Positions 1 to 10,351 of a stretch of 10,351 bases of DNA are shown in pieces; the first letter of the stretch is position 1, and each line of letters opens with the position of its first letter. Below the pieces are notes generated by a model, which was given only the letters and a program-made list of their open reading frames with translations, had not been told where the DNA came from and searched no databases. Both the position numbers and the translations under genes were made by a program. This DNA comes from a virus (Duplodnaviria; Heunggongvirae; Uroviricota; Caudoviricetes), in IMG/VR virus record IMGVR_UViG_2778261165_000022, positions 1-10,351 of that record; one strand, 5' to 3'.

Positions 1-1254
1 ATGCTGGAACAAATGGGCATTGCCGCGAAGCAAGCCTCGTATAAATTAGCGCAACTCTCCAGCCGCGAAAAAAATCGCGTGCTGGAAAAAATCGCCGATG
101 AACTGGAAGCACAAAGCGAAATCATCCTCAACGCTAACGCCCAGGATGTTGCTGACGCGCGAGCCAATGGCCTTAGCGAAGCGATGCTTGACCGTCTGGC
201 ACTGACGCCCGCACGGCTGAAAGGCATTGCCGACGATGTACGTCAGGTGTGCAACCTCGCCGATCCGGTGGGGCAGGTAATCGATGGCGGCGTACTGGAC
301 AGCGGCCTGCGTCTTGAGCGTCGTCGCGTACCGCTGGGGGTTATTGGCGTGATTTATGAAGCGCGCCCGAACGTGACGGTTGATGTCGCTTCGCTGTGCC
401 TGAAAACCGGTAATGCGGTGATCCTGCGCGGTGGCAAAGAAACGTGTCGCACTAACGCTGCAACGGTGGCGGTGATTCAGGACGCCCTGAAATCCTGCGG
501 CTTACCGGCGGGTGCCGTGCAGGCGATTGATAATCCTGACCGTGCGCTGGTCAGTGAAATGCTGCGTATGGATAAATACATCGACATGCTGATCCCGCGT
601 GGTGGCGCTGGTTTGCATAAACTGTGCCGCGAACAGTCGACGATCCCGGTGATCACAGGTGGTATAGGCGTATGCCATATTTATGTTGATGAAAGTGTAG
701 AGATTGCTGAAGCATTAAAAGTGATCGTCAACGCGAAAACTCAGCGTCCGAGCACATGTAATACGGTAGAAACGTTGCTGGTGAATAAAAACATCGCCGA
801 TAGCTTCCTGCCCGCATTAAGCAAACAAATGGAGGAAAGCGGCGTGGCATTACACGCAGATGCAGCTGCGCTGGCGCAGTTGCAGACAGGCCCCGCGAAG
901 GTGGTGGCTGTTAAAGCGGAAGAGTATGACGATGAGTTTCTGTCATTAGATTTGAACGTCAAAATCGTCAGTGATCTTGACGATGCCATCGCCCATATTC
1001 GTGAACACGGCACACAACACTCCGATGCGATCCTGACCCGCGATATGCGCAACGCCCAGCGTTTTGTTAACGAAGTGGATTCGTCCGCTGTTTACGTTAA
1101 CGCCTCTACGCGTTTTACCGACGGCGGCCAGTTTGGACTGGGTGCGGAAGTGGCGGTAAGCACACAAAAACTCCACGCGCGTGGCCCAATGGGGCTGGAA
1201 GCACTGACCACTTACAAGTGGATCGGCATTGGTGATTACACCATTCGTGCGTAA
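1..1254 (+). CDS. proA: gamma-glutamyl phosphate reductase (glutamate-5-semialdehyde dehydrogenase)
   Basis: 417-aa ORF from the track with TAA stop at 1252..1254. Length and sequence match enterobacterial ProA as I recall it. Window begins at its ATG. Confidence 0.95.
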
Positions 1255-1368
1255 ATAAAACCGGGTGATGCAAAAGTAGCCATTTGATTCACAAGGCCAT
1301 TGACGCATCGCCCGGTTAGTTTTAACCTTGTCCACCGTGATTCACGTTCGTGAACATGTCCTTTCAGG

Positions 1369-1444
1369 GCCGATATAGCTCAGTTGGTAGAGCAGCGCAT
1401 TCGTAATGCGAAGGTCGTAGGTTCGACTCCTATTATCGGCACCA
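1369..1444 (+). tRNA. thrW: tRNA-Thr (anticodon CGU), thrW-like
   Basis: 76 nt GCCGATATAGCTCAGTTGGTAGAGCAGCGCATTCGTAATGCGAAGGTCGTAGGTTCGACTCCTATTATCGGCACCA folds as a cloverleaf: acceptor stem GCCGATA/TATCGGC, D stem GCTC/GAGC, anticodon loop TTCGTAA (U33, CGT at 34-36, A37), T loop TTCGACT, discriminator A and encoded CCA. Sits directly downstream of proA, as thrW does in E. coli. Confidence 0.93.
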
Positions 1445-1460
1445 TTAAAATCAAGTAGTT
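1400..1460. other. probable prophage attL / integration junction at the tRNA 3' end
   Basis: The integrase stop codon (1459..1461) is 15 bp from the tRNA 3' end. tRNA-targeting integrases recombine within the 3' part of the tRNA and regenerate it. The second junction (attR) is outside the window, so core boundaries are not determinable. Confidence 0.4.
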
Positions 1461-2619
1461 ACCCCATATTTAAATACACCACGTTCTCCTCTTGTGCCGT
1501 ATTTGTGCCATTGCGACTTATAATCGCATCGATTTTGCTTGCGTGCTCGGTGAGATGCCCGGCTGAAAGGTGGGCGTATCTTTGAACCATTTCGAGAGTT
1601 TCCCATCCTCCCATCTCTTTAAGTGCAAGAAGAGAGACACCGGACTGAACCAGCCAGCTTGCCCAGGTATGCCTCAGATCATGGAAGCGGAAGTTACTAA
1701 TGCCTGCCCGCTTTAACGCTCCCTTCCATGCCTTGTTGCTGTCGGTTCTCATCTTCCTTACCGCTGCTGTTTTTGTTCCGTCGCTTCGGTAGGCAGGTTT
1801 GGTGTGGACAAATACCCATCTCTTATGGAGCCCCTGCTGTTTTCTTAATATCTGGCATGCGGTTTCGTTAAGAGGAACTCCGATCGCATTGCCAGCTTTT
1901 GTTTCATCAGGGTGTATCCATGCCATTTTCTTATCCAGATCGACCTGTGACCACTCAAGGTCTGTAACGTTGGAACGGCGAAGGCCTGTCGTGATTGCAA
2001 ACATGACCACAGGGAAGAAGTGAGGAGCAATTTCTGCAAACAGGCGCTTCGATTCCTCCTCTGTAAGCCATCTGATGCGTCCATTCTTAACGCGTGGTGT
2101 TGATATTTTGGGTGCCCTGTCAAGCCATCCCCATTCAACAGCCATATTGAGAATGGCGCGAAGTATTGCCAGATGCCTCGTCTTCGTTCCTTTGCTTGCA
2201 AGCTTTGGTTTATACTCCGGCACCGGATTGCCAAGTCGCAAACACCTGTCCCGGCTCATCTCCCAGTTCAGGCGATGGCGGCGGTTTTCCATCCCATCTA
2301 CCGCCTCCATTATTTTTTCTGTTGTTATGTCAGAGAGAATGGCTTCTCTGAAGTGCAACATCCAGAACGATATAATGCTCTTGTCATCATCAATGGACTT
2401 CTTATCCGATTTCTCACGCAGCCACCGTATGCAGGCTTCCTTGAATAGCTTTTTCGGTGATTCCCCGAGATTTTTTACTCTCCACGCTTCTGCTTTCAGA
2501 CGATCGTGAAGTTCTTGCGCTTGCCTTTTGTCCGATGTTTCAAGAGAGCGTCTAACTCTTGATCCATCTGGCGCGACGAAATCGCAGTGCCACGTGCCAC
2601 CGCGTAGTTTGATTGACAT
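1459..2619 (-). CDS. int: phage integrase, tyrosine recombinase (P22/lambda-like)
   Basis: 386-aa ORF with ATG at 2619 preceded by AGGAGG. C-terminal catalytic signature HDLRHTWASW ... VQRYAHL (His-x-x-Arg and catalytic Tyr). Placement next to a tRNA gene with xis overlapping upstream. Confidence 0.93.
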   Translation of the reverse strand: MSIKLRGGTWHCDFVAPDGSRVRRSLETSDKRQAQELHDRLKAEAWRVKNLGESPKKLFKEACIRWLREKSDKKSIDDDKSIISFWMLHFREAILSDITTEKIMEAVDGMENRRHRLNWEMSRDRCLRLGNPVPEYKPKLASKGTKTRHLAILRAILNMAVEWGWLDRAPKISTPRVKNGRIRWLTEEESKRLFAEIAPHFFPVVMFAITTGLRRSNVTDLEWSQVDLDKKMAWIHPDETKAGNAIGVPLNETACQILRKQQGLHKRWVFVHTKPAYRSDGTKTAAVRKMRTDSNKAWKGALKRAGISNFRFHDLRHTWASWLVQSGVSLLALKEMGGWETLEMVQRYAHLSAGHLTEHASKIDAIISRNGTNTAQEENVVYLNMG

Positions 2620-2843
2620 GCTTTAACCTCCTGCACATCAACCGCATTCACCGCGCTATTGTGTCTCACAGACTTAAGCGCCGCAATGCAGTCTGACTTG
2701 CAAATGCGATATGGGCTTTTAGGTTTATCTGGATTTATCTTTGCGGCCTGAAGTCGTCCACTTCGTATCCACTGCGTGATAGTGCCTTTGTCTACCTTCA
2801 GATACGACGCTGCCTCTTCACGAGTGAAGATTTCTTCTTCCAC
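2496..2843 (-). CDS. xis: excisionase-family DNA-binding protein
   Basis: 115-aa ORF whose N-terminus (EIFTREEAASYLKVDKGTITQWIRSGRL) looks like an excisionase/HTH_17 helix-turn-helix. Apparent GTG start at 2843 with GGAGA about 6 nt upstream. 3' end overlaps int by 124 nt, as is usual for xis-int pairs. Confidence 0.75.
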   Translation of the reverse strand: MEEEIFTREEAASYLKVDKGTITQWIRSGRLQAAKINPDKPKSPYRICKSDCIAALKSVRHNSAVNAVDVQEVKACQSNYAVARGTAISSRQMDQELDALLKHRTKGKRKNFTIV

Positions 2844-2933
2844 CTGGAATCTCCATTTATTGGATTGGTATTATTGCGGTAGGTCTGGATATCATTGAGC
2901 AATGAACAGGCCTCATCGAGTATGAGGCTGTGG

Positions 2934-3278
2934 TTAGTCCTTGCGTAGCTCGATGATTCTTCTGTAAGTCTCTGGTGCTTTGTTTCCGTGTATCTTCATT
3001 TCAGACTTCAACAGAGCAACGAGAGAATCCCATTCGTTGAGGATGCCTTTGAATGCCGGAACGCGCTTTGCAACCTTGTCGAATGAATCCCTGATTTCTG
3101 GAATCTGCTCGACAAGCGCAACGCATCGTCGGAAATCGGCTACATCATGTGGAGCGCCGAAGTGATGACCATAGATATTCTTTTTCAGTCCACATGCGAT
3201 TGAGGCAAGAGTTGCGCTACTGATGCCAACATCGCCAGTCGATTGCCATTTCAAAACCTTCATAGCCAAATCTGACAT
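2934..3278 (-). CDS. hypothetical phage protein (114 aa)
   Basis: Track ORF 2934..3305, but the first ATG lies inside a terminator hairpin. The ATG at 3278 (MSDLAMKVLKW...) is preceded by GGAGA at good spacing. No family recognised. Confidence 0.55.
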   Translation of the reverse strand: MSDLAMKVLKWQSTGDVGISSATLASIACGLKKNIYGHHFGAPHDVADFRRCVALVEQIPEIRDSFDKVAKRVPAFKGILNEWDSLVALLKSEMKIHGNKAPETYRRIIELRKD

Positions 3279-3290
3279 TTCTTGTCTCCA

Positions 3291-3312
3291 ATAAAAAACC
3301 GCCATCAGGCGG
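3291..3312 (-). terminator. intrinsic terminator (minus strand)
   Basis: Minus-strand reading GCCGCC-TGAT-GGCGG followed by TTTTTTAT. The hairpin contains the stop codon of the 55-aa ORF. Confidence 0.55.
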
Positions 3313-3472
3313 CTTGGTGTTCTTTCAGTTCTTCAATTCGAATATTGGTTACGTCTGCATGTGCTATCTGCGCCCATATCATCCAGTGGTCGTAGCAGTC
3401 GTTGATGTTCTCCGCTTCGATAACTCTGTTGAATGGCTCTCCATTCCATTCACCTGTGACTTTGAATTTCAT
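3305..3472 (-). CDS. hypothetical small protein (55 aa)
   Basis: Hand-translated ORF not in the track: MKFKVTGEWNGEPFNRVIEAENINDCYDHWMIWAQIAHADVTNIRIEELKEHQAA. ATG preceded by AGGTGA. Bracketed by intrinsic terminators on both sides. Coordinates approximate. Confidence 0.4.
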   Translation of the reverse strand: MKFKVTGEWNGEPFNRVIEAENINDCYDHWMIWAQIAHADVTNIRIEELKEHQAA

Positions 3473-3483
3473 TAAGTTTCACC

Positions 3484-3510
3484 TGTAAAAAAAGGAGCCG
3501 AAGCTCCTTT
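3484..3510 (-). terminator. intrinsic terminator (minus strand)
   Basis: Minus-strand AAAGGAGC-TTCG-GCTCCTTT followed by a T run, immediately after the TAA stop of the AntA-like gene (3515..3517). 8-bp stem with a UUCG tetraloop. Confidence 0.65.
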
Positions 3511-3514
3511 GATA

Positions 3515-4138
3515 TTAAAATTCGAATTGTCTCGCCCGAAGGCTTTTTAACATTGGTCTTGCCCGTTCGAAAATGGCGCTTGTCTGGTCAATTCGTGTTG
3601 CCTCCCTGAGCAATGCGTCTCTGTTTTTCGTCACCGTGTAGAAAGTCTCAAACGCGATGTCATACAGCTTGCTCGCGTATGATGAGTTCAGTTCCTTCAA
3701 TATCGGATACAGGCGTTTGCTGATGTCCTGTGCTTTCTCCATCTGTACCTGCATGTAGCAGAGGAGGATGATTTCCTCGTCTGTGAATTGCTGCGCTGGT
3801 TGCATGCTGCGAAGTTTCTTTTCACACTCGATGAAGTATCGGCGTATCTGGCGACCTTTTTCGTTACGCTCGACCATTGCCAGCTCTTTGGCTGTGTCGA
3901 GGGTGAGGTGATAGTCTTTGCTACGGCGATCGCCTCCTCGACCTTTGATTTCCCTATTTGGGGAAACCAAAATATAGTCCTGATTTTCAACGAATCCATA
4001 TTCAGCAATGCGTTCTGTAATCCACGATGCAAAGCGTTTACCTACCCCAAGAAAAGTATGTAAATCTCGAGCATTAACGAGAAGAGTGATTTCGTTGGCG
4101 ATAGTGCCGTTGAATACGGGGATGAGTTGACTGGTCAT
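3515..4138 (-). CDS. AntA/AntB-like antirepressor-domain protein
   Basis: 207-aa ORF, ATG at 4138 preceded by AAAGGA. The N-terminal segment ARDLHTFLGVGKRFASWITERIAEYGFVENQDY resembles the AntA/AntB antirepressor N-terminal domain as I recall it. The C-terminal half is unassigned. Confidence 0.6.
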   Translation of the reverse strand: MTSQLIPVFNGTIANEITLLVNARDLHTFLGVGKRFASWITERIAEYGFVENQDYILVSPNREIKGRGGDRRSKDYHLTLDTAKELAMVERNEKGRQIRRYFIECEKKLRSMQPAQQFTDEEIILLCYMQVQMEKAQDISKRLYPILKELNSSYASKLYDIAFETFYTVTKNRDALLREATRIDQTSAIFERARPMLKSLRARQFEF

Positions 4139-4462
4139 TTTTATGTCCTTTCGATTCGTTCAGATTACCCTGTGTTCAGCAGGGTGGTCAGGTACTTGAA
4201 CACCGTCGAAAGTTCGGCCCGCATCCTTAGCCTTGCGGCTGTTTTTCGGTATACGCGCTACCCGACCATATCTGAAAAATGGACATAAAAAATCCGCATG
4301 ACTGACGGGTGCGGTTTCCGCTTTCGAAGGTGTGTTCAGCACCATGAAGCGGAATATAGCCCCGTTAATGCGGATTTGTCAAATCATGTGGTCTTTATCT
4401 TGCTGTAAGCCGCGCCATTCGGTCTTTTCCCCCCAGATTTGGGGAAAACTATCTTGTCAAAA
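4139..4462. promoter_or_regulatory. structured intergenic region (candidate promoter/operator or small RNA locus)
   Basis: 324 bp without a convincing ORF. Two palindromes share a 7-nt centre with different arms: CCCTG-TGTTCAG-CAGGG (about 4168..4184) and GGTG-TGTTCAG-CACC (about 4327..4341). Two hairpins share the stem CCGCA/TGCGG, one followed by a T run on the plus strand (about 4219..4246), one followed by a T run on the minus strand (about 4287..4314). Inverted repeat TTTTCCCC-N8-GGGGAAAA at about 4425..4448. Confidence 0.4.
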
Positions 4463-5206
4463 TCATGCAGCCTTTCGTTCTCCTTCGATGAGTTCCTCGA
4501 TCTTGTGCACTCCCGCCTCGTTGTAGCGAAATGTCTCGACCTGCTTGTCACTGTGCGCCGATTTGTCGATGAACCACTTCCCGTACTTTTCTGTTTTGAG
4601 CATGTAGGTGTTGGCAATGCGCCCTACCTTGTTGGCTGAAATGCCAAGCATGGTGCCAACCTCCGACGCAGAGTAGTGATGTTCATCAATGACCGGAAGA
4701 GGGATTGCACTAAAGCCGACGACGGGATTAATCAGGCTGGCGGCAACGACCTGTTTAGCTTCCGGTGCGAGGTGAGGGAGGAAGTCGAAGAGGTCTTTCA
4801 TTGTGTCGACGGTCATTTTCAATGCGCGTGCCTTACGGAATTCTTCAAGGCCATCCGGTGATTTCTTCGTGGTCGTTTTTTGTTGCAACTGCTGTTGCAT
4901 TGATTCAAGTTTGTCGACCAGCGAACGACGGACGGCTTTCGACTCACGTGCGGCGACGCGCAGGGCTTGCTTGTAGGTCATCACTATAACCACCTGATCC
5001 GCTCCGCCTTTTTTCTTATCCATGGGGGTTACGAAAATTTCGTAACCCTCCCCCTCAAGCTCATCTTTGATGCGTGCAATGAAGTCGTTGTTGCGTACTT
5101 CTTTTTCGCCTCGCAGTCTCCGCGCCTCATTAACCATTTTCAACAGCATCTGGCTGTCAATTGTTGCAGCCGGAAACGAAGACTGATTTGCAATATTGTT
5201 AATCAT
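4463..5206 (-). CDS. hypothetical phage protein (247 aa), possible C-terminal HTH/KilA-C-like region
   Basis: Track ORF 4463..5263. The in-frame ATG at 5206 (MINNIANQ...) has AAGGA upstream; the ATG at 5263 has no Shine-Dalgarno. C-terminal SASEVGTMLGISANKVGRIAN looks helix-turn-helix-like. No confident family. Confidence 0.6.
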   Translation of the reverse strand: MINNIANQSSFPAATIDSQMLLKMVNEARRLRGEKEVRNNDFIARIKDELEGEGYEIFVTPMDKKKGGADQVVIVMTYKQALRVAARESKAVRRSLVDKLESMQQQLQQKTTTKKSPDGLEEFRKARALKMTVDTMKDLFDFLPHLAPEAKQVVAASLINPVVGFSAIPLPVIDEHHYSASEVGTMLGISANKVGRIANTYMLKTEKYGKWFIDKSAHSDKQVETFRYNEAGVHKIEELIEGERKAA

Positions 5207-5301
5207 GTATTCTGTCCTTTTCAGATAAAAGAAATCCCCGCGAGTGCGAGGATTGTTATTCATTGCCGATATTCACCTTTATCGCGAACACCTTTACCGG
5301 T

Positions 5302-5544
5302 TTATCTCCTTTGCATGGCGCGTAATTTTTTCAGATGGTTCTCCTGCTCTGTTTCAGCCAGAATTTGTCGGTATTCCTGGTGATCGATCCGTTCAAACAG
5401 TTCATTAAAATCGTTTATTTTTACCGACTGTGTTCGCCCATCCATTCTTCTGTACAACACAGTGTTGTTTATGCAGCGAAGAATTTTTATCGGGTAGCCG
5501 GCGCTATCGGTGTATATCTGACCACGTTGAATCAGAGCGAACAT
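5302..5544 (-). CDS. hypothetical small phage protein (80 aa)
   Basis: The track ORF begins with a TTG at 5598. The first ATG (MFALIQRGQIYTDSAG...) at 5544 has GGGGATAAAGGA upstream. No family recognised. Confidence 0.45.
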   Translation of the reverse strand: MFALIQRGQIYTDSAGYPIKILRCINNTVLYRRMDGRTQSVKINDFNELFERIDHQEYRQILAETEQENHLKKLRAMQRR

Positions 5545-5618
5545 TCCTTTATCCCCAGCGGAAAAGCGAATACAGAATAAATGCCACCGCGATTGCAACT
5601 CCTACAGCGGTGAATGCT

Positions 5619-6281
5619 TCAGGCCAATTCATCATTCACTCCCTGCGGCGGTTCTGGTAGCAGCATCCAGTACAAGGCGTTCCCTAACCACGATAAAGTG
5701 CCGTCGCTCAACTCCACGTATTCCCCTTGTACCTGTCCTGCCATATACTCGCCGTGCTTTGAATAAATTAAAACCCAATCGTCTTGAGCGGGAATTCGCT
5801 CACTACAGCTTATCCAACCATCCGGAATTACCGGAGAGTTGGTTGACGTTTCCGAGGTTTCCCGAAAATTATTGGTTGACGAATCCTTATTTTCCCGAAA
5901 GTTTCCAGCCTGAAGCATTGCGGCGCGGCAGGCGTTCCAGCCTCTCACCTCTGCAATAGCGGCAACAGCATCAACCGCGTACATGCTAAGAGGATTAGGC
6001 ATTGGTTTTTCTTCCGGTACTACTGGAACGGGTGGAGCGGCGTAGACTTCAATAATCCCATTATCAATAGGCCATTCTCCATCCTTGAGGTAGTCACTTG
6101 TGCCGTCAACTTTCTGTTCTGCAATGTGGAATGCACCTATTGGTTTTGCTTCCAGCGATACCAGTGCAATTCGTGCCAGTTCCTCCGCTTCTTCTGCTGG
6201 CAGTACAACGTTGCTACCCGGTCCGTATGTTTCGCGCCACTGCTTGATTGTCAGCAGTCGCTCTTTGGTTATAGTGGTCAT
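5619..6281 (-). CDS. DUF551-domain phage protein
   Basis: 220-aa ORF. C-terminal IPDGWISCSERIPAQDDWVLIYSKHGEYMAGQVQ...LSWLGNALYWMLLPEPP resembles the DUF551 domain common in lambdoid prophages. Its ATG overlaps the upstream gene's stop (ATGA), implying translational coupling. Confidence 0.7.
   Translation of the reverse strand: MTTITKERLLTIKQWRETYGPGSNVVLPAEEAEELARIALVSLEAKPIGAFHIAEQKVDGTSDYLKDGEWPIDNGIIEVYAAPPVPVVPEEKPMPNPLSMYAVDAVAAIAEVRGWNACRAAMLQAGNFRENKDSSTNNFRETSETSTNSPVIPDGWISCSERIPAQDDWVLIYSKHGEYMAGQVQGEYVELSDGTLSWLGNALYWMLLPEPPQGVNDELA
5839..5901. repeat. 33-bp imperfect tandem direct repeat inside the DUF551 CDS
   Basis: TTGGTTGACGTTTCCGAGGTTTCCCGAAAA and TTGGTTGACGAATCCTTATTTTCCCGAAAG, about 23/30 identical and 33 bp apart. 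Encodes the 11-aa repeat NFRENKDSSTN / NFRETSETSTN in the linker before the DUF551 domain. Confidence 0.6.
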
Positions 6282-6487
6282 TTGTTAATCCTCAAAACTT
6301 TATGCCCGGGCGCAAAAGCACGCGTTTTGTCTTTGCTTATTCGCCAGCCATCCTTGCGCGCCTCTTTTGCACAGCCAGCCCATGACGTACCGATATATTC
6401 ACCGAAGTCTGGCGTTTGATATTTACCATTTGTACACTGGCGACAATCACAGTAGAGATGCATGGTGTAACTTGCGGCAATAGCCAT
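6278..6487 (-). CDS. small Cys-rich protein (69 aa), possible zinc-binding
   Basis: Track ORF 6278..6649 begins with a TTG. The in-frame ATG at 6487 (MAIAASYTMHLYCDCRQCTNGKYQ...) has AAGGAG 7 nt upstream and lies 1 nt after the Ea22-like stop. Cys at positions 13, 15, 18 and 39. Confidence 0.5.
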   Translation of the reverse strand: MAIAASYTMHLYCDCRQCTNGKYQTPDFGEYIGTSWAGCAKEARKDGWRISKDKTRAFAPGHKVLRINK

Positions 6488-6488
6488 A

Positions 6489-7259
6489 TCACTCTCCTTT
6501 GATGCGAATACCAGCAGCGCGCTCGGCTTCACTTTGTTCCCAAAACCACTTGTGAAGCGCCATAAGCTTTTCGTCAATCGGTGCATATTTGCGATTAAAG
6601 TAGGCCTGAGCATCTTTCTCAGATTCGTCCGGTAATTCGCCAGGGCCAAACAGTGTGTTATAAATCCATGCTAGTCCGCTCTTAGCGTCGCCAGTTGCCT
6701 GCCATTCGATAATGGCAGCCTGCATGACCAGAATGTTTTTCCCGATTAATAGGTCCAGTTCTTTGTACCGGTTGCGGATGTATGCATTCTCGCTTTGTAA
6801 TTTTGCGTTGCGCTTTTCTGAGGCTTCAAGTAACGCCTGCTTATCGCGTAGCGCTTCTTCCAGTTCAGCAACATGGCATTCACTATCAATAAGGTTGTTC
6901 TCTGCTGCTTCAAGCTCAACACGCAGCTTCCCAACCGTAAGCGCAATCTCCTCGTTCTCCTGGTCGCGGCGTTTGATGTATTGCTGGTTTCTTTCCCGTT
7001 CATCCAGCAGGGCCAGCGCAACATTTGGATTAAAAGCAGCAATAAATTCAGCGTTTGCATAAGCCTGAACATCTGTTTCAACTAGGCAGTTAACATGACA
7101 TTCCGCAATCACACCACCGGGTTCTCCTTTCCATTTTTGGCAAACAAAAACTCCTGTTAAATTGCCGTGCTGGTTAACAGATGTATGCCCTACGATGTAG
7201 CTTCCTTTAGTTGCTTTCTCTGCCTTTTCACGCAGTGCCTGATAATCAATCTTGCTCAC
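6489..7259 (-). CDS. Ead/Ea22-like family protein (coiled-coil)
   Basis: 256-aa ORF, GTG start with AGGAGG 6 nt upstream. N-terminal [14 protein letters not shown] and a long Glu/Leu/Arg-rich central helix resemble the Ead/Ea22-like proteins of lambdoid prophages as I recall them. Confidence 0.65.
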
Positions 7260-7423
7260 TGGTTGCCTCCTTTGCGCAACATCGCATTCAGATATTTGTT
7301 GTCATTAACAGAACCGAAACTATTTCCCTTAAGCAATTCCTCTCTCGATGGCATTGGCTTTACGCGTTGGCGAATAATCATTTCTGCTGGAAGAATGCCG
7401 GGATTGTATGCAAGTCCTCTCAT
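7256..7423 (-). CDS. hypothetical small protein (55 aa)
   Basis: Hand-translated: [58 protein letters not shown] preceded by AGAGGA. Its stop overlaps the Ea22-like GTG start (GTGA). Coordinates approximate. Confidence 0.4.
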
Positions 7424-7439
7424 GGTAAATTCCTCTTTG

Positions 7440-7754
7440 TTAATTTATTCGTATGCCTTCTCTTTCTTCATCGAGTTTTTTTAGCTTGTATCGCATAGCT
7501 CTTACTGAATAAATTGAGCGGCAGGTTGCAATTGCTATTTCTTCTGCGGAGAACTTACCGAAAAGTGATACTTCGGCTCTTGTCCAGCGTCTTCCACGAA
7601 GTCGGCTAACAATGTCAGCGCCAATCCTTGTTGCTTTCGCCATTACTGCTTTCTCAGTCCTTTCCAGTTTTTCAGCGATAACTTCAACTGGCATTGTTGC
7701 CGCTACTTCGCGCAAGAAATCTACTTCCCATTTCTCCCAAGGAGTCTTTTTCAT
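7440..7754 (-). CDS. hypothetical protein (104 aa) with two internal HTH-like repeats
   Basis: Track ORF with ATG at 7754. Two similar segments, [32 protein letters not shown] and [32 protein letters not shown], share a W-x-x-E-x-x-L...IA pattern reminiscent of GcrA-type helix-turn-helix repeats. Confidence 0.5.
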
Positions 7755-7765
7755 AGGCGATACCG

Positions 7766-8248
7766 TTATTTGATAAGAAGTGAAGGTTTCCCAACCTTGA
7801 GTTGAGCGCCTGGGATATTTATTCCTGCTTTTAGTTGGTGCTTGATTGCCAACTTGTCGGCTTTAATTGTCGTTTCAAACTCAACGTATTCAGGAGGAAG
7901 GGCGCTTGAGTCGATGATTTCTACAGTTTCTGACGGTTTGCGGATTGTTACCTGGTGAATACCTGCTCGAATCTTTTTCTTGCCAACCATTTCAAGCGAT
8001 GACGCTATATATGATTTGATGCTGTCAATCTTATTTTGAATTACTGCGGCTCGCTCATTCAGCGACTTTGCCTCTTCCTTGAGGCGTTCAGCATAACCAG
8101 ATTCATTTTTAATAATGGCGAGAAGTTGCTCTATTTTATCGGTAAATTCTCCTTCCATGCCTTCTATTGTGTCAGCAATCATCTCTGGATCTAAATCTGA
8201 ATCCATCAATTTTGCGTATTCATTGGCTATTTCATATAGTTTGCTCAC
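7766..8248 (-). CDS. Siphovirus Gp157-like protein
   Basis: Track ORF 7766..8254 begins with a TTG. The GTG at 8248 has GGAGG 6 nt upstream. Sequence pattern (LYEIANEY..., DTIEGMEGEF, GKKKI, VTIRKPSETVEIID, LPPEYVEF, AIKHQLKAG, PGAQL) matches my recollection of the Gp157 family that often accompanies RecT. Confidence 0.65.
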   Translation of the reverse strand: MSKLYEIANEYAKLMDSDLDPEMIADTIEGMEGEFTDKIEQLLAIIKNESGYAERLKEEAKSLNERAAVIQNKIDSIKSYIASSLEMVGKKKIRAGIHQVTIRKPSETVEIIDSSALPPEYVEFETTIKADKLAIKHQLKAGINIPGAQLKVGKPSLLIK

Positions 8249-9143
8249 TGGCAACCTCCAGTTTCGCTTTGCATTCTATGTAAATGGCTTGTACGTTCTG
8301 CTGTAATTTCATTCCAGATGTTAGGCGATATGCTTCTGCAAAATATCGCTTCAAATCATCCATGTTTTCTGCCTGAGCCATTTCATCGCAAAGAAGTTGT
8401 ACTTTATCCATTATTTCCTGCTGGCGTTTCCGTTCATCTTCGCGGATATCTTCCTCTGATTTGTGCGGCATAACTGGTTCAGTCCACACACCTTCTTCTT
8501 CGTTTAGTACGTGAATAGCACTATCAAGACGTGATGCCTTAGGCCAATACTTGCTTGCACGCTTTACGACCGTCTTTCGCGCCATCTCATTCCAGTGATT
8601 TACCCATGGTCCTTTATCGCTGAATGCTGCCTTGCTTGTTTTCCTTACAGCCTCAATTTCAGCCAGACTCATCTCTTCCGTTAGATAATCACCTGCTGGC
8701 GTCTTAACTGTGCAGTAAACGCCAACGATATCACCACGATCACCGAAGGCGTTGTATTTATGGGTTGGTGCTTTATCAAGCCCGTTTGACTCATAGGTAT
8801 CGTTAGCATGAACAAGTTTTGCCTGACCCCATGAGATAACACCAGACTCCATTGCAATATGGAGCAATCCCATATAACTGATATCAAGGCAAACCATGCC
8901 GTCGCGCGGAACCAGATAAGCCAGTTTGCTGGCCGGGTTTAAGGTGATGCCGATCGCCGCAACATTGATGATGGCGTTCTGTGCGCTGGTTGGATTTGCC
9001 AGTGCCGTTTTAGCCAGGTAATCGTTTTTCTGGAAATACTGAATTGCAAACTGGCTTTCCTTAGCCCATGTCACCGTCTGTTCAGTCAATGCTCCGCAGA
9101 ATAACTGCTCTTGCTGTTTAACGAATTCAACGATATTGCTCAT
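8232..9143 (-). CDS. recT: RecT-family single-strand annealing recombinase
   Basis: 303-aa ORF, ATG at 9143 with GGAG 8 nt upstream. The motif GPWVNHWNEMARKTVVKRASKYWP closely parallels GPWVTHWEEMAKKTAIRRLFKYLP of Rac RecT. ATGA overlap with the upstream gene. Confidence 0.85.
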   Translation of the reverse strand: MSNIVEFVKQQEQLFCGALTEQTVTWAKESQFAIQYFQKNDYLAKTALANPTSAQNAIINVAAIGITLNPASKLAYLVPRDGMVCLDISYMGLLHIAMESGVISWGQAKLVHANDTYESNGLDKAPTHKYNAFGDRGDIVGVYCTVKTPAGDYLTEEMSLAEIEAVRKTSKAAFSDKGPWVNHWNEMARKTVVKRASKYWPKASRLDSAIHVLNEEEGVWTEPVMPHKSEEDIREDERKRQQEIMDKVQLLCDEMAQAENMDDLKRYFAEAYRLTSGMKLQQNVQAIYIECKAKLEVASEQTI

Positions 9144-9451
9144 GCAGCTTCTCCAAAAATGTGTCTGCGTTTGAATATTGCGAAGGCATATTCAGCCTTA
9201 ACTCTTTCGGTTATTGCATCCCAGAACCATTCAGCGGCTTTTTCCTGATAGTTACAATCATCATCTTCCAGCCAGTCGATAGCATCCTTAGTATGTTCAT
9301 CTGGTTTATATGAGCGAAGCATTTCGCTTATTGGGTCGCAACGTTTGCAGAGGCGATCAACTTCACTGTTGATTCGTTCGTAATCTTCATCAGTAAAACT
9401 TGCGATAATTTGCGATATTTCACGCTTATCATTCAGAGTCAGAATCATCAT
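9140..9451 (-). CDS. hypothetical acidic phage protein (103 aa)
   Basis: Track ORF with tandem ATG ATG at 9451 and GGAGA upstream. Rich in Asp/Glu. Translationally coupled to recT. Confidence 0.55.
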   Translation of the reverse strand: MMILTLNDKREISQIIASFTDEDYERINSEVDRLCKRCDPISEMLRSYKPDEHTKDAIDWLEDDDCNYQEKAAEWFWDAITERVKAEYAFAIFKRRHIFGEAA

Positions 9452-9532
9452 CTTTCTCCTGTTCTTTGTGCTGATTGAGCATTTTGTTCATCTGACGAAT
9501 GAATTCTTCGTCTGACCAGTTATCTGTAAAAC

Positions 9533-9685
9533 TCATTTCCTGCGATACCACGGAAGGTTGATAGCTGATTTCATCGCTTTATTTGCTTCAAGCCACATTT
9601 TTGAATCACCAATAAATCTGGCTATTACTGCTTTGTTTTGTGCAGCACGAAGCATCTGGTGATTGATGGCTATTTCATTGCGCAT
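9533..9685 (-). CDS. hypothetical small protein (50 aa)
   Basis: Hand-translated: MRNEIAINHQMLRAAQNKAVIARFIGDSKMWLEANKAMKSAINLPWYRRK. ATG preceded by GGAGG at 5 nt. Coordinates approximate. Confidence 0.4.
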   Translation of the reverse strand: MRNEIAINHQMLRAAQNKAVIARFIGDSKMWLEANKAMKSAINLPWYRRK

Positions 9686-9804
9686 AACGCCTCCAGTTGT
9701 TTCTTTGCTGCTCTGATTAATTGTTTAACTCGGCGTGATAATTCAGATTCGTGCGGGTAGAAAGCGGACATGACGCCGCTACCCGCGAGCTGAAAGTGCA
9801 TCAT
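9670..9804 (-). CDS. hypothetical small protein (44 aa)
   Basis: Track ORF 9670..9855. The in-frame ATG at 9804 (MMHFQLAGSG...) has AAGGAG about 7 nt upstream. 3' end overlaps the next ORF's start by 16 nt. Confidence 0.4.
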   Translation of the reverse strand: MMHFQLAGSGVMSAFYPHESELSRRVKQLIRAAKKQLEALCAMK

Positions 9805-9887
9805 GGGTAACTCCTTATATTTGATTGCATAACGAAAACGCCTCAAGTGAAGCATTATTGGTATGCGGTAAAGCCGCGCTTGGCGGC

Positions 9888-10225
9888 TTATTTGAAGACT
9901 TCTATGAAATCAAGAACTGATGATATTTCGTGGTTGAATGATTTTCTTTTATATCTTTCTATCGCAGAATCTACCTGGTGTTTATAGTCATCGTCGTTTG
10001 AGTATTTAACGAAGCATTCTATTGTCTCAGGCGTTACAGCCATAAGGCTCCACCAACCTTCATCAGATTGATATTCAAATCCCATGCTTTCAAGCCATCC
10101 AGCATATTTCCCTCCAGCATCTTGCCAGTGAGTCTTTTCTGCAAGAAAACTGTTAACCGTCATATGTGCATCAAGGCATTTATCCAACTGTTTACCATTA
10201 AGCAGCCATGCGCTGACAGTTGCAC
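9888..10225 (-). pseudogene. prophage early gene, probably truncated at its 5' end by IS2
   Basis: Track ORF 9888..10253 begins with a TTG inside the IS2 terminal repeat. The first native ATG (MTVNSF..., 10163) has no Shine-Dalgarno. The frame stays open up to the IS2 boundary, consistent with loss of the true N-terminus. Confidence 0.45.
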
Positions 10226-10351
10226 TAGACTGGCCCCATGAATCTCCAGACAACCAATATCACTTAAATAAGTGATAGTCTTAATACTAGTTTTTAGACT
10301 AGTCATTGGAGAGCAGATGATTGATGTCTTAGGACCGGAGAAACGCAGACG
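10226..10351 (+). mobile_element. IS2 (IS3 family) left end, partial; continues beyond the window
   Basis: TAGACTGGCCCC.TGAATCTCCAGACAACCAATATCACTTAAATAAGTGATAGTCTTAATACTAGTTTTTAGACTAGTCATTGGAG matches the IS2 left terminal region as I remember it, followed by the insC start. Confidence 0.8.
10317..10351 (+). CDS. insC: IS2 OrfA transposase (InsC), N-terminal 11 codons only
   Basis: ATG at 10317 preceded by GGAGAG. Translation MIDVLGPEKRR matches the InsC N-terminus (MIDVLGPEKRRRRTTQEK...) from memory. Confidence 0.75.
   Translation, partial: MIDVLGPEKRR

Follow-up and report, generated by a model that had tools for sequence, protein, structure and literature searches.

The int-xis-attP module of a group of plaque-forming temperate coliphages (HK542, HK446, HK75, mEp213, mEp043, mEpX2 and ECP1) is already known, and the records of these seven phages annotate an attP 'similar to thrW'. 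The module is hosted by HK97-like siphoviruses (HK542, HK446 and HK75) and by lambda-like mEp phages. The 46-base core that we describe below has been published, base for base, as the core of SfI, SfII, SfV, SfX and P22 (PMC3636060). For P22, a published table gives an attP of 260 bp, a Xis of 116 aa, and IHF sites that are present and not essential (PMC4111918). In K-12, the same thrW site is occupied by CP4-6, which has this core repeat at both of its ends, once within thrW and once within a partial thrW copy, ptwF. There, the toxin-antitoxin pair ykfI/yafW with related genes, and not int, adjoins thrW, while the 466-aa IntF is encoded 34 kb away at the far end, beside ptwF.

Here, we analysed a stretch of viral DNA of 10,351 nucleotides (the window). 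We are highly confident that positions 1255-2843 are the attL of a lambdoid prophage carrying an SfX/HK446-type int-xis-attP cassette at thrW. Since its int and xis hardly differ from the genes of well-known coliphages, the arrangement is a familiar one and not new.

The proA-thrW-int-xis locus

The features of the window are listed in Table 1. All E. coli genomes that match annotate the chromosomal flank as proA, and positions 1-1462 are 98.9% identical to the K-12 proA-thrW region. ARAGORN found a single tRNA in the window, a tRNA-Thr(CGU) that equals K-12 thrW at every base (Rfam tRNA score of 71.8 bits), which bears out the intact tRNA gene of the preliminary description. Its reading of a prophage in thrW beside proA also stands, with the tRNA, int and xis lying where it had placed them. 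The spacing between int and the tRNA, given there as 15 bp, is 14 nt (1445-1458) by our count because the TAA stop of int occupies 1459-1461; this is the same fact, counted differently. A change of composition at the tRNA had also been proposed, and it is real though modest, with a G+C content of 54.4% in proA (GC3 57.2%) versus 46.0% over 1445-10351, int itself having 49.1% (GC3 51.2%). Moreover, the coding strand flips at the tRNA.

Table 1. Features located in the window, with strand and basis of assignment.
Feature	Position	Strand	Basis
proA (glutamate-5-semialdehyde dehydrogenase), chromosomal flank	1-1254	+	417-aa ORF
thrW, intact tRNA-Thr(CGU)	1369-1444	+	ARAGORN; Rfam
att core, 46 nt, ATTCGTAATGCGAAGGTCGTAGGTTCGACTCCTATTATCGGCACCA	1399-1444	+	common to thrW and phage attP
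Candidate IHF site (H'-like), AATCAAGTAGTTA, fits WATCAANNNNTTR	1449-1461	+	consensus match
Candidate P' arm-type Int-binding site, TTGTGCCGT	1492-1500	+	repeat motif
Candidate P' arm-type Int-binding site, TTGTGCCAT	1503-1511	+	repeat motif
int, 386-aa heterobivalent tyrosine integrase	1459-2619	-	PF00589; SfX/HK446 type, P22 Int family
xis, 115-aa excisionase (recombination directionality factor)	2496-2843	-	PF12728 HTH_17
Lambdoid early-left (pL-operon) genes, with phrog_1229 and phrog_676 proteins	2934-9855	-	Pfam, PHROG
AntA/B antirepressor	3515-4138	-	Pfam/PHROG
phrog_1726 anti-repressor	4463-5263	-	Pfam/PHROG
DUF551	5619-6281	-	Pfam/PHROG
Ead/Ea22	6489-7259	-	Pfam/PHROG
Gp157	7766-8254	-	Pfam/PHROG
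RecT	8232-9143	-	Pfam/PHROG
Kil	9533-9685	-	Pfam/PHROG
cIII-like gene	9670-9855	-	Pfam/PHROG
IS2-like left terminus and transposase gene start	10226-10351	+	95.2% to IS2 bases 1-126, SfX record U82084.1

The int gene starts with ATG, 7 nt downstream of an AGGAGG motif. Residues 184-353 of its product match Phage_integrase (PF00589) with an E-value of 1.3e-35 (123.2 bits, cut-off 27.1). The catalytic signature, which the preliminary description had called intact, is indeed complete: R214, K241, H313, R316, W339 and Y348 are all present, and these six residues are invariant across the window Int, four coliphage Ints and P22 Int. In an alignment, W339 falls opposite the second His of a XerC-like recombinase (chain 4a8e_A). 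At the amino acid level, the window Int is 99.2% identical to that of HK446, 96.1% to that of SfX and 54.5% to that of P22; it is 98-99% identical to the four aligned HK/mEp Ints and equal to the Int of E. coli ET650. Compared with a consensus of these four phages (HK542, HK446, HK75 and mEp213), it carries the substitutions A93 (T in the phages), N131 (K) and I235 (M), together with M385 (A) and G386 (R) at the C-terminus. Residue 131 is K in the HK phages and P22 alike.

The overlap of xis with int and its GTG start, both reported before, were confirmed. The ORF is intact, is preceded by GGAG and overlaps int by 124 nt. The HK542, HK446, HK75 and mEp213 records annotate the identical GTG start and overlap, GGAG is found upstream of xis in the phages too, and the overlap is likewise 124 nt in P22 and the HK phages. 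It should be noted that xis of P22 starts with ATG, and not with GTG as in the window. Residues 6-51 of Xis match HTH_17 (PF12728; E=1.4e-8). The protein is 100% identical to the HK446 excisionase and 99% identical to those of HK542, HK75 and mEp213, whereas it shares 42% of its residues with the 116-aa P22 Xis in an end-to-end alignment.

At the DNA level, the seven coliphage modules are 97.4-97.7% identical to the window over 1399-2900. Their gene lengths, the 14-nt gap from the core to the int stop and the arm-type repeats equal those of the window. Two differences were observed: the cassette in the window is integrated, and the P arm is missing because it is in the attL form, unlike the attP of the coliphages; and the early genes beside it form another mosaic than in the HK/mEp phages.

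A pI-like promoter for int within xis, or shortly upstream of it, would be recognisable from a lambda-type CII box (TTGC-N6-TTGC). With at most one mismatch allowed, no match was found on either strand of 1903-5252, and CII-box matches in total were fewer than expected by chance. Consensus scans for promoters and terminators yielded no dependable signal. The promoter scan of 1200-3400 gave one promoter-like site versus 2.8 expected; a terminator scan of the same interval gave eight hairpins versus 1.9 expected, none of them positioned to explain int regulation.

Attachment core, arm sites and relatives in complete genomes

Identity with the attP of HK542, HK446, HK75, mEp213 and P22 begins at 1399, the first base of the core. 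The candidate IHF site, which ends with the three bases of the int stop codon, is the sole match to the consensus in the window. Such a match occurred at least once in 95 of 200 shuffles and is not significant alone; the weight of this site comes only from its conservation and its position. Its ATCAA and TTA positions do not vary among the window, the HK phages, P22, three E. coli prophages and the two K-12 junctions.

The two candidate arm-type sites lie 11 nt apart within the C-terminal coding part of int, and their motif has three matches in the window versus 0.53 expected. In the attP of HK542, the motif occurs five times, at -125, -114, -73, +93 and +104 from the start of the core. P22 has five arm-type repeats and an IHF-like site at the offsets of the SfX/HK446-type cassette, but its repeat reads TGGGACA(A/T) whereas that of the window reads TTGTGCC(G/A)T. 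This map of the P22 arm sites combines our own repeat analysis with the review table (PMC4111918). The IHF-like site and the arm-type repeats of the window thus stand at offsets equal to those in both HK542 and P22, and IHF and Int, respectively, are predicted to bind there.

In the mechanism that we propose, Int would recombine attP with the chromosomal thrW inside the common 46-nt stretch, with strand exchange falling somewhere within 1399-1444. The last 46 nt of thrW would have been re-formed by the phage att core, restoring an intact tRNA gene and placing the P' arm right after it. This arm would comprise the IHF-like site, the int stop and the two arm-type sites in the end of int, which points to the tRNA. 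Xis, encoded upstream of int from its GTG start, would direct Int to attL and a distant attR, leading to excision. With the prophage in place, thrW remains intact, a point of practical value.

To look for a further core in the window, we used a 45-nt probe (the 46-nt core minus its first base) with up to three mismatches, and the thrW copy alone was recovered; general repeat finding in the window gave nothing relevant to att. The scope of this search is set by the window, which stops 1 base short of the end of draft contig NTPJ01000052.1. An attR junction of the HK542 type would consist of the P arm AATGCTTGCTAAAACAGATAGTTATGATTGGTGCTACAG, followed by the core ATTCGTAATGCG...GGCACCA.

Such junctions were found in complete genomes. 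Using the DNA of 1399-2900 as query, 120 of 5426 complete genomes were matched with at least 80% query cover, always beside tRNA-Thr. Over 1255-2900, the window is 100% identical to E. coli ET650 and GDSC2BY4G, and the order proA-thrW-int-xis is the same in these two, in HS, in TUM9803 and in ~116 other complete genomes. In ET650, TUM9803 and HS, a whole lambdoid prophage has int-xis at thrW as one of its ends. The 45-nt core probe matches perfectly a second time at a distance of 41.6 kb (ET650), 39.4 kb (TUM9803) and 41.9 kb (HS), and this copy is preceded in each case by an HK542-type P arm; these prophages show the attR, and the window ends before any.

The prophage in ET650, which has this cassette, carries baseplate-type tail genes. 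Since the cassette is found in phages with different virions, it is uninformative on the type of virion; it moves among lambdoid phages and is unusable for phage typing.

Possible activity of the prophage and its separation from P22 and CP4-6

The early-left DNA is a mosaic, with matches of 90-97% to Gally, Kapi1, HK140, mEp213 and Stx phages. An exact look-up of the RecT protein returned prophages at other att sites only. At most 66% of the whole window is covered by any one record, and this early-left gene set is therefore a new mosaic. The IS2-like end, the terminal inverted repeat of which was found in L019, separates xis/int from the expected pL promoter.

The preliminary description had suggested that the excision module could still work, a view that fits the Int and Xis protein sequences. 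Both genes may be expressed, and the prophage may be able to excise. As a separate observation that counts against excision, the IS2-like element is on the promoter side of xis/int in the early-left operon, so inducible excision is only a candidate property. The five Int substitutions, the missing CII box at xis and the lack of an attR in the window also weigh against our reading.

It is quite possible, and we hold this tentatively, that the prophage whose left end the window shows is defective (grounded), its int and xis ORFs being intact but its excision no longer inducible. This could result from an IS2-like block of pL transcription toward xis/int, or the remainder of the prophage, attR with it, could have been lost or rearranged. 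Consistent with such a state, the IS2-like terminus lies within the early-left operon and cuts short the gene at 9888-10253, the draft contig breaks off at this terminus, and the relatives at thrW contain IS elements and pseudogenes (two IS3-family copies in HS and several frameshifted genes in ET650). However, all reading frames from xis to the IS are open and match phage families, and int may be transcribed from a promoter of its own. Moreover, viable temperate phages have Int and Xis proteins at least 99% identical to these, an identity from which recombination activity (integration and Xis-dependent excision) is predicted. The question concerns activity alone; the identification as an SfX/HK446-type attL is the same in either case. 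Given that the prophage is split at the IS2-like copy in the draft assembly, statements on its completeness or inducibility need a better assembly.

It is improbable that the occupant is a prophage of P22, or of Lederbergvirus, in the strict sense. P22 uses the identical thrW target and 46-nt core, and has the matching int-stop position, arm-site geometry and overlapping long Xis, and two relatives at thrW, in TUM9803 and HS, carry P22-type virion genes. Nevertheless, DNA identity with P22 spans no more than 64 nt around the core (93.8%), the two proteins are as distant as indicated above, and neither int-xis nor the genome shows the nucleotide similarity that membership of Lederbergvirus P22 entails. 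The same cassette is, besides, at home in HK97-like siphoviruses, in mEp phages and in the ET650 prophage with its different tail. The term 'P22-like', applied earlier to the integrase, therefore holds at the level of the family and fails at any closer level; the closest relatives of Int and Xis are SfX and the HK/mEp coliphages (Int 96-99%, Xis 99-100%). The arrangement is not unusual, and follows the layout typical of this int family, P22 included.

That the occupant differs from K-12 CP4-6, as had been proposed, was confirmed: Int and IntF are unrelated by BLASTP (E=0.26) and the gene content is other. Similarity of the window to the K-12 locus ends at 1462, save for the att core and a 69-nt fossil described below, and neither an IntF-type integrase nor CP4-6 genes were found beside thrW. 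A non-phage genomic island or satellite using a phage-type integrase (CP4-6-like, a pathogenicity island or P4-like) is hardly credible, even though such islands have a hotspot at thrW (PMC7545054), K-12 carries CP4-6 there, and ET650, TUM9803 and HS have islands with their own integrases right after attR, since the 7 kb past xis consist of typical lambdoid early-left genes (antirepressors, Ea22, Gp157, RecT, kil and cIII) and the nearest relatives of the cassette are complete phages. The appropriate annotation of the locus is attL of a lambdoid prophage that carries an SfX/HK446-type thrW cassette, and neither P22 nor CP4-6; beyond this correct annotation, the finding is of little importance.

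A fossil of the int 3' end behind thrW

A 69-nt fossil of the int 3' end directly follows thrW in 948 of 5426 complete genomes. Within it lie the IHF-like site, the int stop and the two P' arm-type repeats; the fossil terminates just past the second of these repeats and is joined to yagP in at least 3234 genomes. The int ORF of the window was considered as a remnant of this kind and rejected, as it is full length.

In the first 35 nt past the tRNA, the int of the window has two differences from the fossil versus eight from the phage alleles. This fossil-like segment turns the C-terminus of Int from AR to MG. Since the int allele is closer to the fossil than to the phages here, it could be a recombinant between a phage and a resident fossil. 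An 'unoccupied' thrW of E. coli would not be naive, and the P' arm of the fossil might influence integration or excision; we regard this set of ideas as rather unlikely, though conceivable. The fossil P' arm at E. coli thrW is a small evolutionary curiosity.

Gene order and att anatomy at thrW

The locus had been described beforehand as a prophage integrated at thrW beside proA, with int followed by an overlapping, GTG-started xis, and the coordinates obtained with ARAGORN, Rfam, ORF analysis and Pfam agree with this (Table). The thrW gene, the single tRNA gene detected by ARAGORN in the window, is identical to that of K-12, whose proA-thrW stretch is 98.9% identical to positions 1-1462. The interval of 15 bp reported between the tRNA and int is the same fact as the 14 nt that we count between the tRNA end and the int stop; apart from this count, the preliminary description was right in every particular of what it observed. 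The composition indeed changes at the tRNA: G+C is 54.4% in proA but 46.0% past the tRNA, and the coding strand also switches. GGAG precedes the xis GTG, and xis and int overlap by 124 nt. RefSeq gives identical copies of Int as 384 aa, beginning 6 nt further inside at an ATC codon (window 2611-2619); a product of 386 aa is more likely, since AGGAGG lies 7 nt upstream of the ATG at 2619 and phage records use the same start.

Table. Coordinates of the features in the window
Feature	Position	Strand	Description
proA	1-1254	+	417-aa ORF; opens the window
thrW, tRNA-Thr(CGU)	1369-1444	+	ARAGORN; Rfam 71.8 bits
att core	1399-1444		46 nt; identity with phage attP starts at 1399 and ends with the tRNA
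Candidate IHF site	1449-1461		AATCAAGTAGTTA; directly past the core
int	1459-2619	-	386-aa ORF; ATG at 2619, TAA stop 1459-1461; Pfam Phage_integrase, E=1.3e-35
P' repeat copies (two)	1492-1500, 1503-1511		inside the int coding end
xis	2496-2843	-	115-aa ORF; GTG at 2843; Pfam HTH_17 helix-turn-helix, E=1.4e-8
Antirepressor-type gene	3515-4138		AntA/B with P22AR C-terminal domain; between xis and the Ea22/DUF551 genes
14-nt inverted repeat	4138-4151 / 4278-4291		flanks the sRNA-Xcc1 match
sRNA-Xcc1 match (RF02221)	4178-4267	-	Rfam, 64.3 bits (gathering score 53); full model length
Anti-repressor gene	4463-5263		phrog_1726; between xis and the Ea22/DUF551 genes
DUF551 gene	5619-6281		imperfect tandem pair at 5839-5903 (32-33 nt, 78% identical)
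RecT	8232-9143		303 aa
ORF	9888-10253		121 aa; begins inside the IS2-like end
IS2-like element	10226-10351		terminus and transposase start; last 126 bases; 95.2% identity to IS2 in SfX record U82084.1

The bases of the core are exactly those of the att core reported for SfI, SfII, SfV, SfX and P22 (PMC3636060). The window matches the IHF consensus WATCAANNNNTTR once, at the candidate IHF site that follows the core, and the positions that define this site are invariant among the window, the HK phages, P22, three E. coli prophages and both K-12 junctions. Given that the int stop codon forms the last three bases of this match, the int-tRNA distance is fixed in this integrase family. Repeat analysis of the HK542 attP revealed five copies of TTGTG(C/A)C(G/A)T in one orientation, at -125, -114, -73, +93 and +104 from the core start; P22 carries TGGGACA(A/T) at the corresponding offsets. 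Repeats of the HK542 type are matched three times in the window, against 0.53 expected; following the lambda and P22 scheme, we read them as candidate arm-type Int sites. The attP of P22 measures 260 bp, and its IHF sites are present but not essential (table in PMC4111918).

On these features, a circular phage genome would have recombined with thrW inside the common 46 nt, re-forming the tRNA gene and leaving the order thrW, P' arm, int and xis at this end. Excision would require Int and Xis to act on attL and on attR, the latter consisting of the P arm and the core. No second core copy was found in the window, which is the reverse complement of the last 10.35 kb of the draft contig NTPJ01000052.1 (GCA_002463735.1) and ends 1 base short of its end.

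A known SfX/HK446-type cassette

Int is a heterobivalent tyrosine recombinase, and its catalytic signature is intact, as had been proposed, with R214, K241, H313, R316, W339 and Y348 all kept. Its sequence has five substitutions relative to the consensus Int of the four phages HK542, HK446, HK75 and mEp213, namely A93 for T, N131 for K, I235 for M, M385 for A and G386 for R; position 131 is K in the HK phages and in P22 alike. The Int of E. coli ET650 is identical to that of the window.

At the DNA level, positions 1399-2900 are 97.4-97.7% identical to the int-xis-attP region of the temperate coliphages HK542, HK446, HK75, mEp213, mEp043, mEpX2 and ECP1, and an int fragment of SfX also matches. 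GenBank records of the matching coliphages list an integrase, an excisionase placed as here relative to int, and an attP 'similar to thrW'. Amino acid identity of Int reaches 99.2% with HK446, 98-99% with HK542, HK75 and mEp213, and 96.1% with SfX, but only 54.5% with P22; that of Xis is 100% with HK446, 99% with HK542, HK75 and mEp213, and 42% with P22. Since DNA likeness to P22 is limited to 64 nt around the core, the label 'P22-like' given to the integrase holds at the family level and not as close kinship, the module being, by sequence comparison, of the SfX/HK446 type.

At least 80% of positions 1255-2900 is present in 120 of the 5426 complete E. coli genomes, each time with an adjoining tRNA-Thr, and two of these (ET650 and GDSC2BY4G) are 100% identical. 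The int-xis of a prophage at thrW is what the preliminary description took it to be. The cassette is a known one and has its usual arrangement here, and annotated genomes already contain identical copies.

Other occupants and an int remnant at thrW

Integration of prophages and islands at the thrW hotspot is well documented (PMC7545054; PMC2629481), and a convergent thrW-int pair was catalogued earlier in O157 strain EDL933 (PMC2951348). The layout differs, as the preliminary description had it, from that of CP4-6 in K-12, where ykfI/yafW and other CP4-6 genes come after thrW, while intF (466 aa) lies 34 kb away, adjoining a partial second thrW copy with the core (ptwF in phage records); IntF showed no significant similarity to the window Int. 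At the left CP4-6 junction (2448-2475 of the K-12 locus, L007), the first ~26 nt past thrW keep the same IHF-consensus block, AAATCAAATTGTTA, and resemble P22 at the same position, though CP4-6 has no int there.

The arrangement is complete in the relatives E. coli ET650, TUM9803 and HS: past the junction lies an entire lambdoid prophage, and a perfect copy of a 45-nt core probe, preceded by an HK542-type P arm, is found 41.6, 39.4 and 41.9 kb away, respectively. Directly past the attR core, all three carry a second element that encodes a tyrosine integrase of its own (ET650, L006 3816-6017; TUM9803, L008 7596-9020; HS, L009 43330-44746), so that integrated elements form tandem arrays at thrW; the second integrase of ET650 is split by IS1.

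Moreover, the 'empty' E. coli thrW site bears a fossil of the 3' end of this int gene. After ptwF, K-12 carries a 69-nt remnant (L007 36756-36823; window counterpart 1445-1513). This remnant keeps the IHF-like site and both P' arm-type repeats, has the MG-stop ending and a deletion of 1 nt, and stops just past the second repeat. The reconstructed empty site (thrW, remnant and yagP) is contiguous in 948 of the 5426 complete genomes, and the core-remnant-yagP junction in at least 3234. Over the first 35 nt past the tRNA, the window/ET650 allele, whose Int ends in MG, shows 2 differences from the remnant and 8 from the alleles of the HK phages. These counts fit descent of the remnant from a phage with the window/ET650 int allele; they fit equally an origin of this allele in which a phage recombined with the remnant already resident at the site.

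The early-left region and its IS2-like end

The 7 kb past xis hold typical lambdoid early-left genes, namely two of antirepressor type, DUF551, Ead/Ea22, Gp157, RecT, kil and a cIII-like gene. Their matches are mosaic across many lambdoid phages, the best single record covering at most 66% of the window. A search around xis gave no lambda-type CII box. The antirepressor region is closest to Stx2a-converting phages (90-94% DNA identity), and the sRNA-Xcc1 match sits in the 324-nt gap between its two genes. The tandem pair in the DUF551 gene is probably an internal protein repeat. The exact RecT protein is shared by prophages that occupy several other sites in the chromosome (L010-L018), whose integrases are lambda-type (Arm-DNA-bind_1) or others; thus, the early-left region and the integration cassette assort independently as modules.

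The match to IS2 begins at base 1 of IS2, and the source contig breaks off where the element lies. The 121-aa ORF is a truncated gene, as it starts in the IS end. Its insertion into the early-left operon separates xis/int from the expected pL promoter, so that pL transcription may fail to reach the excision genes. The same IS2-like junction is found in a prophage of strain Z1323CEC0002, which has a lambda-type integrase and occupies another site.
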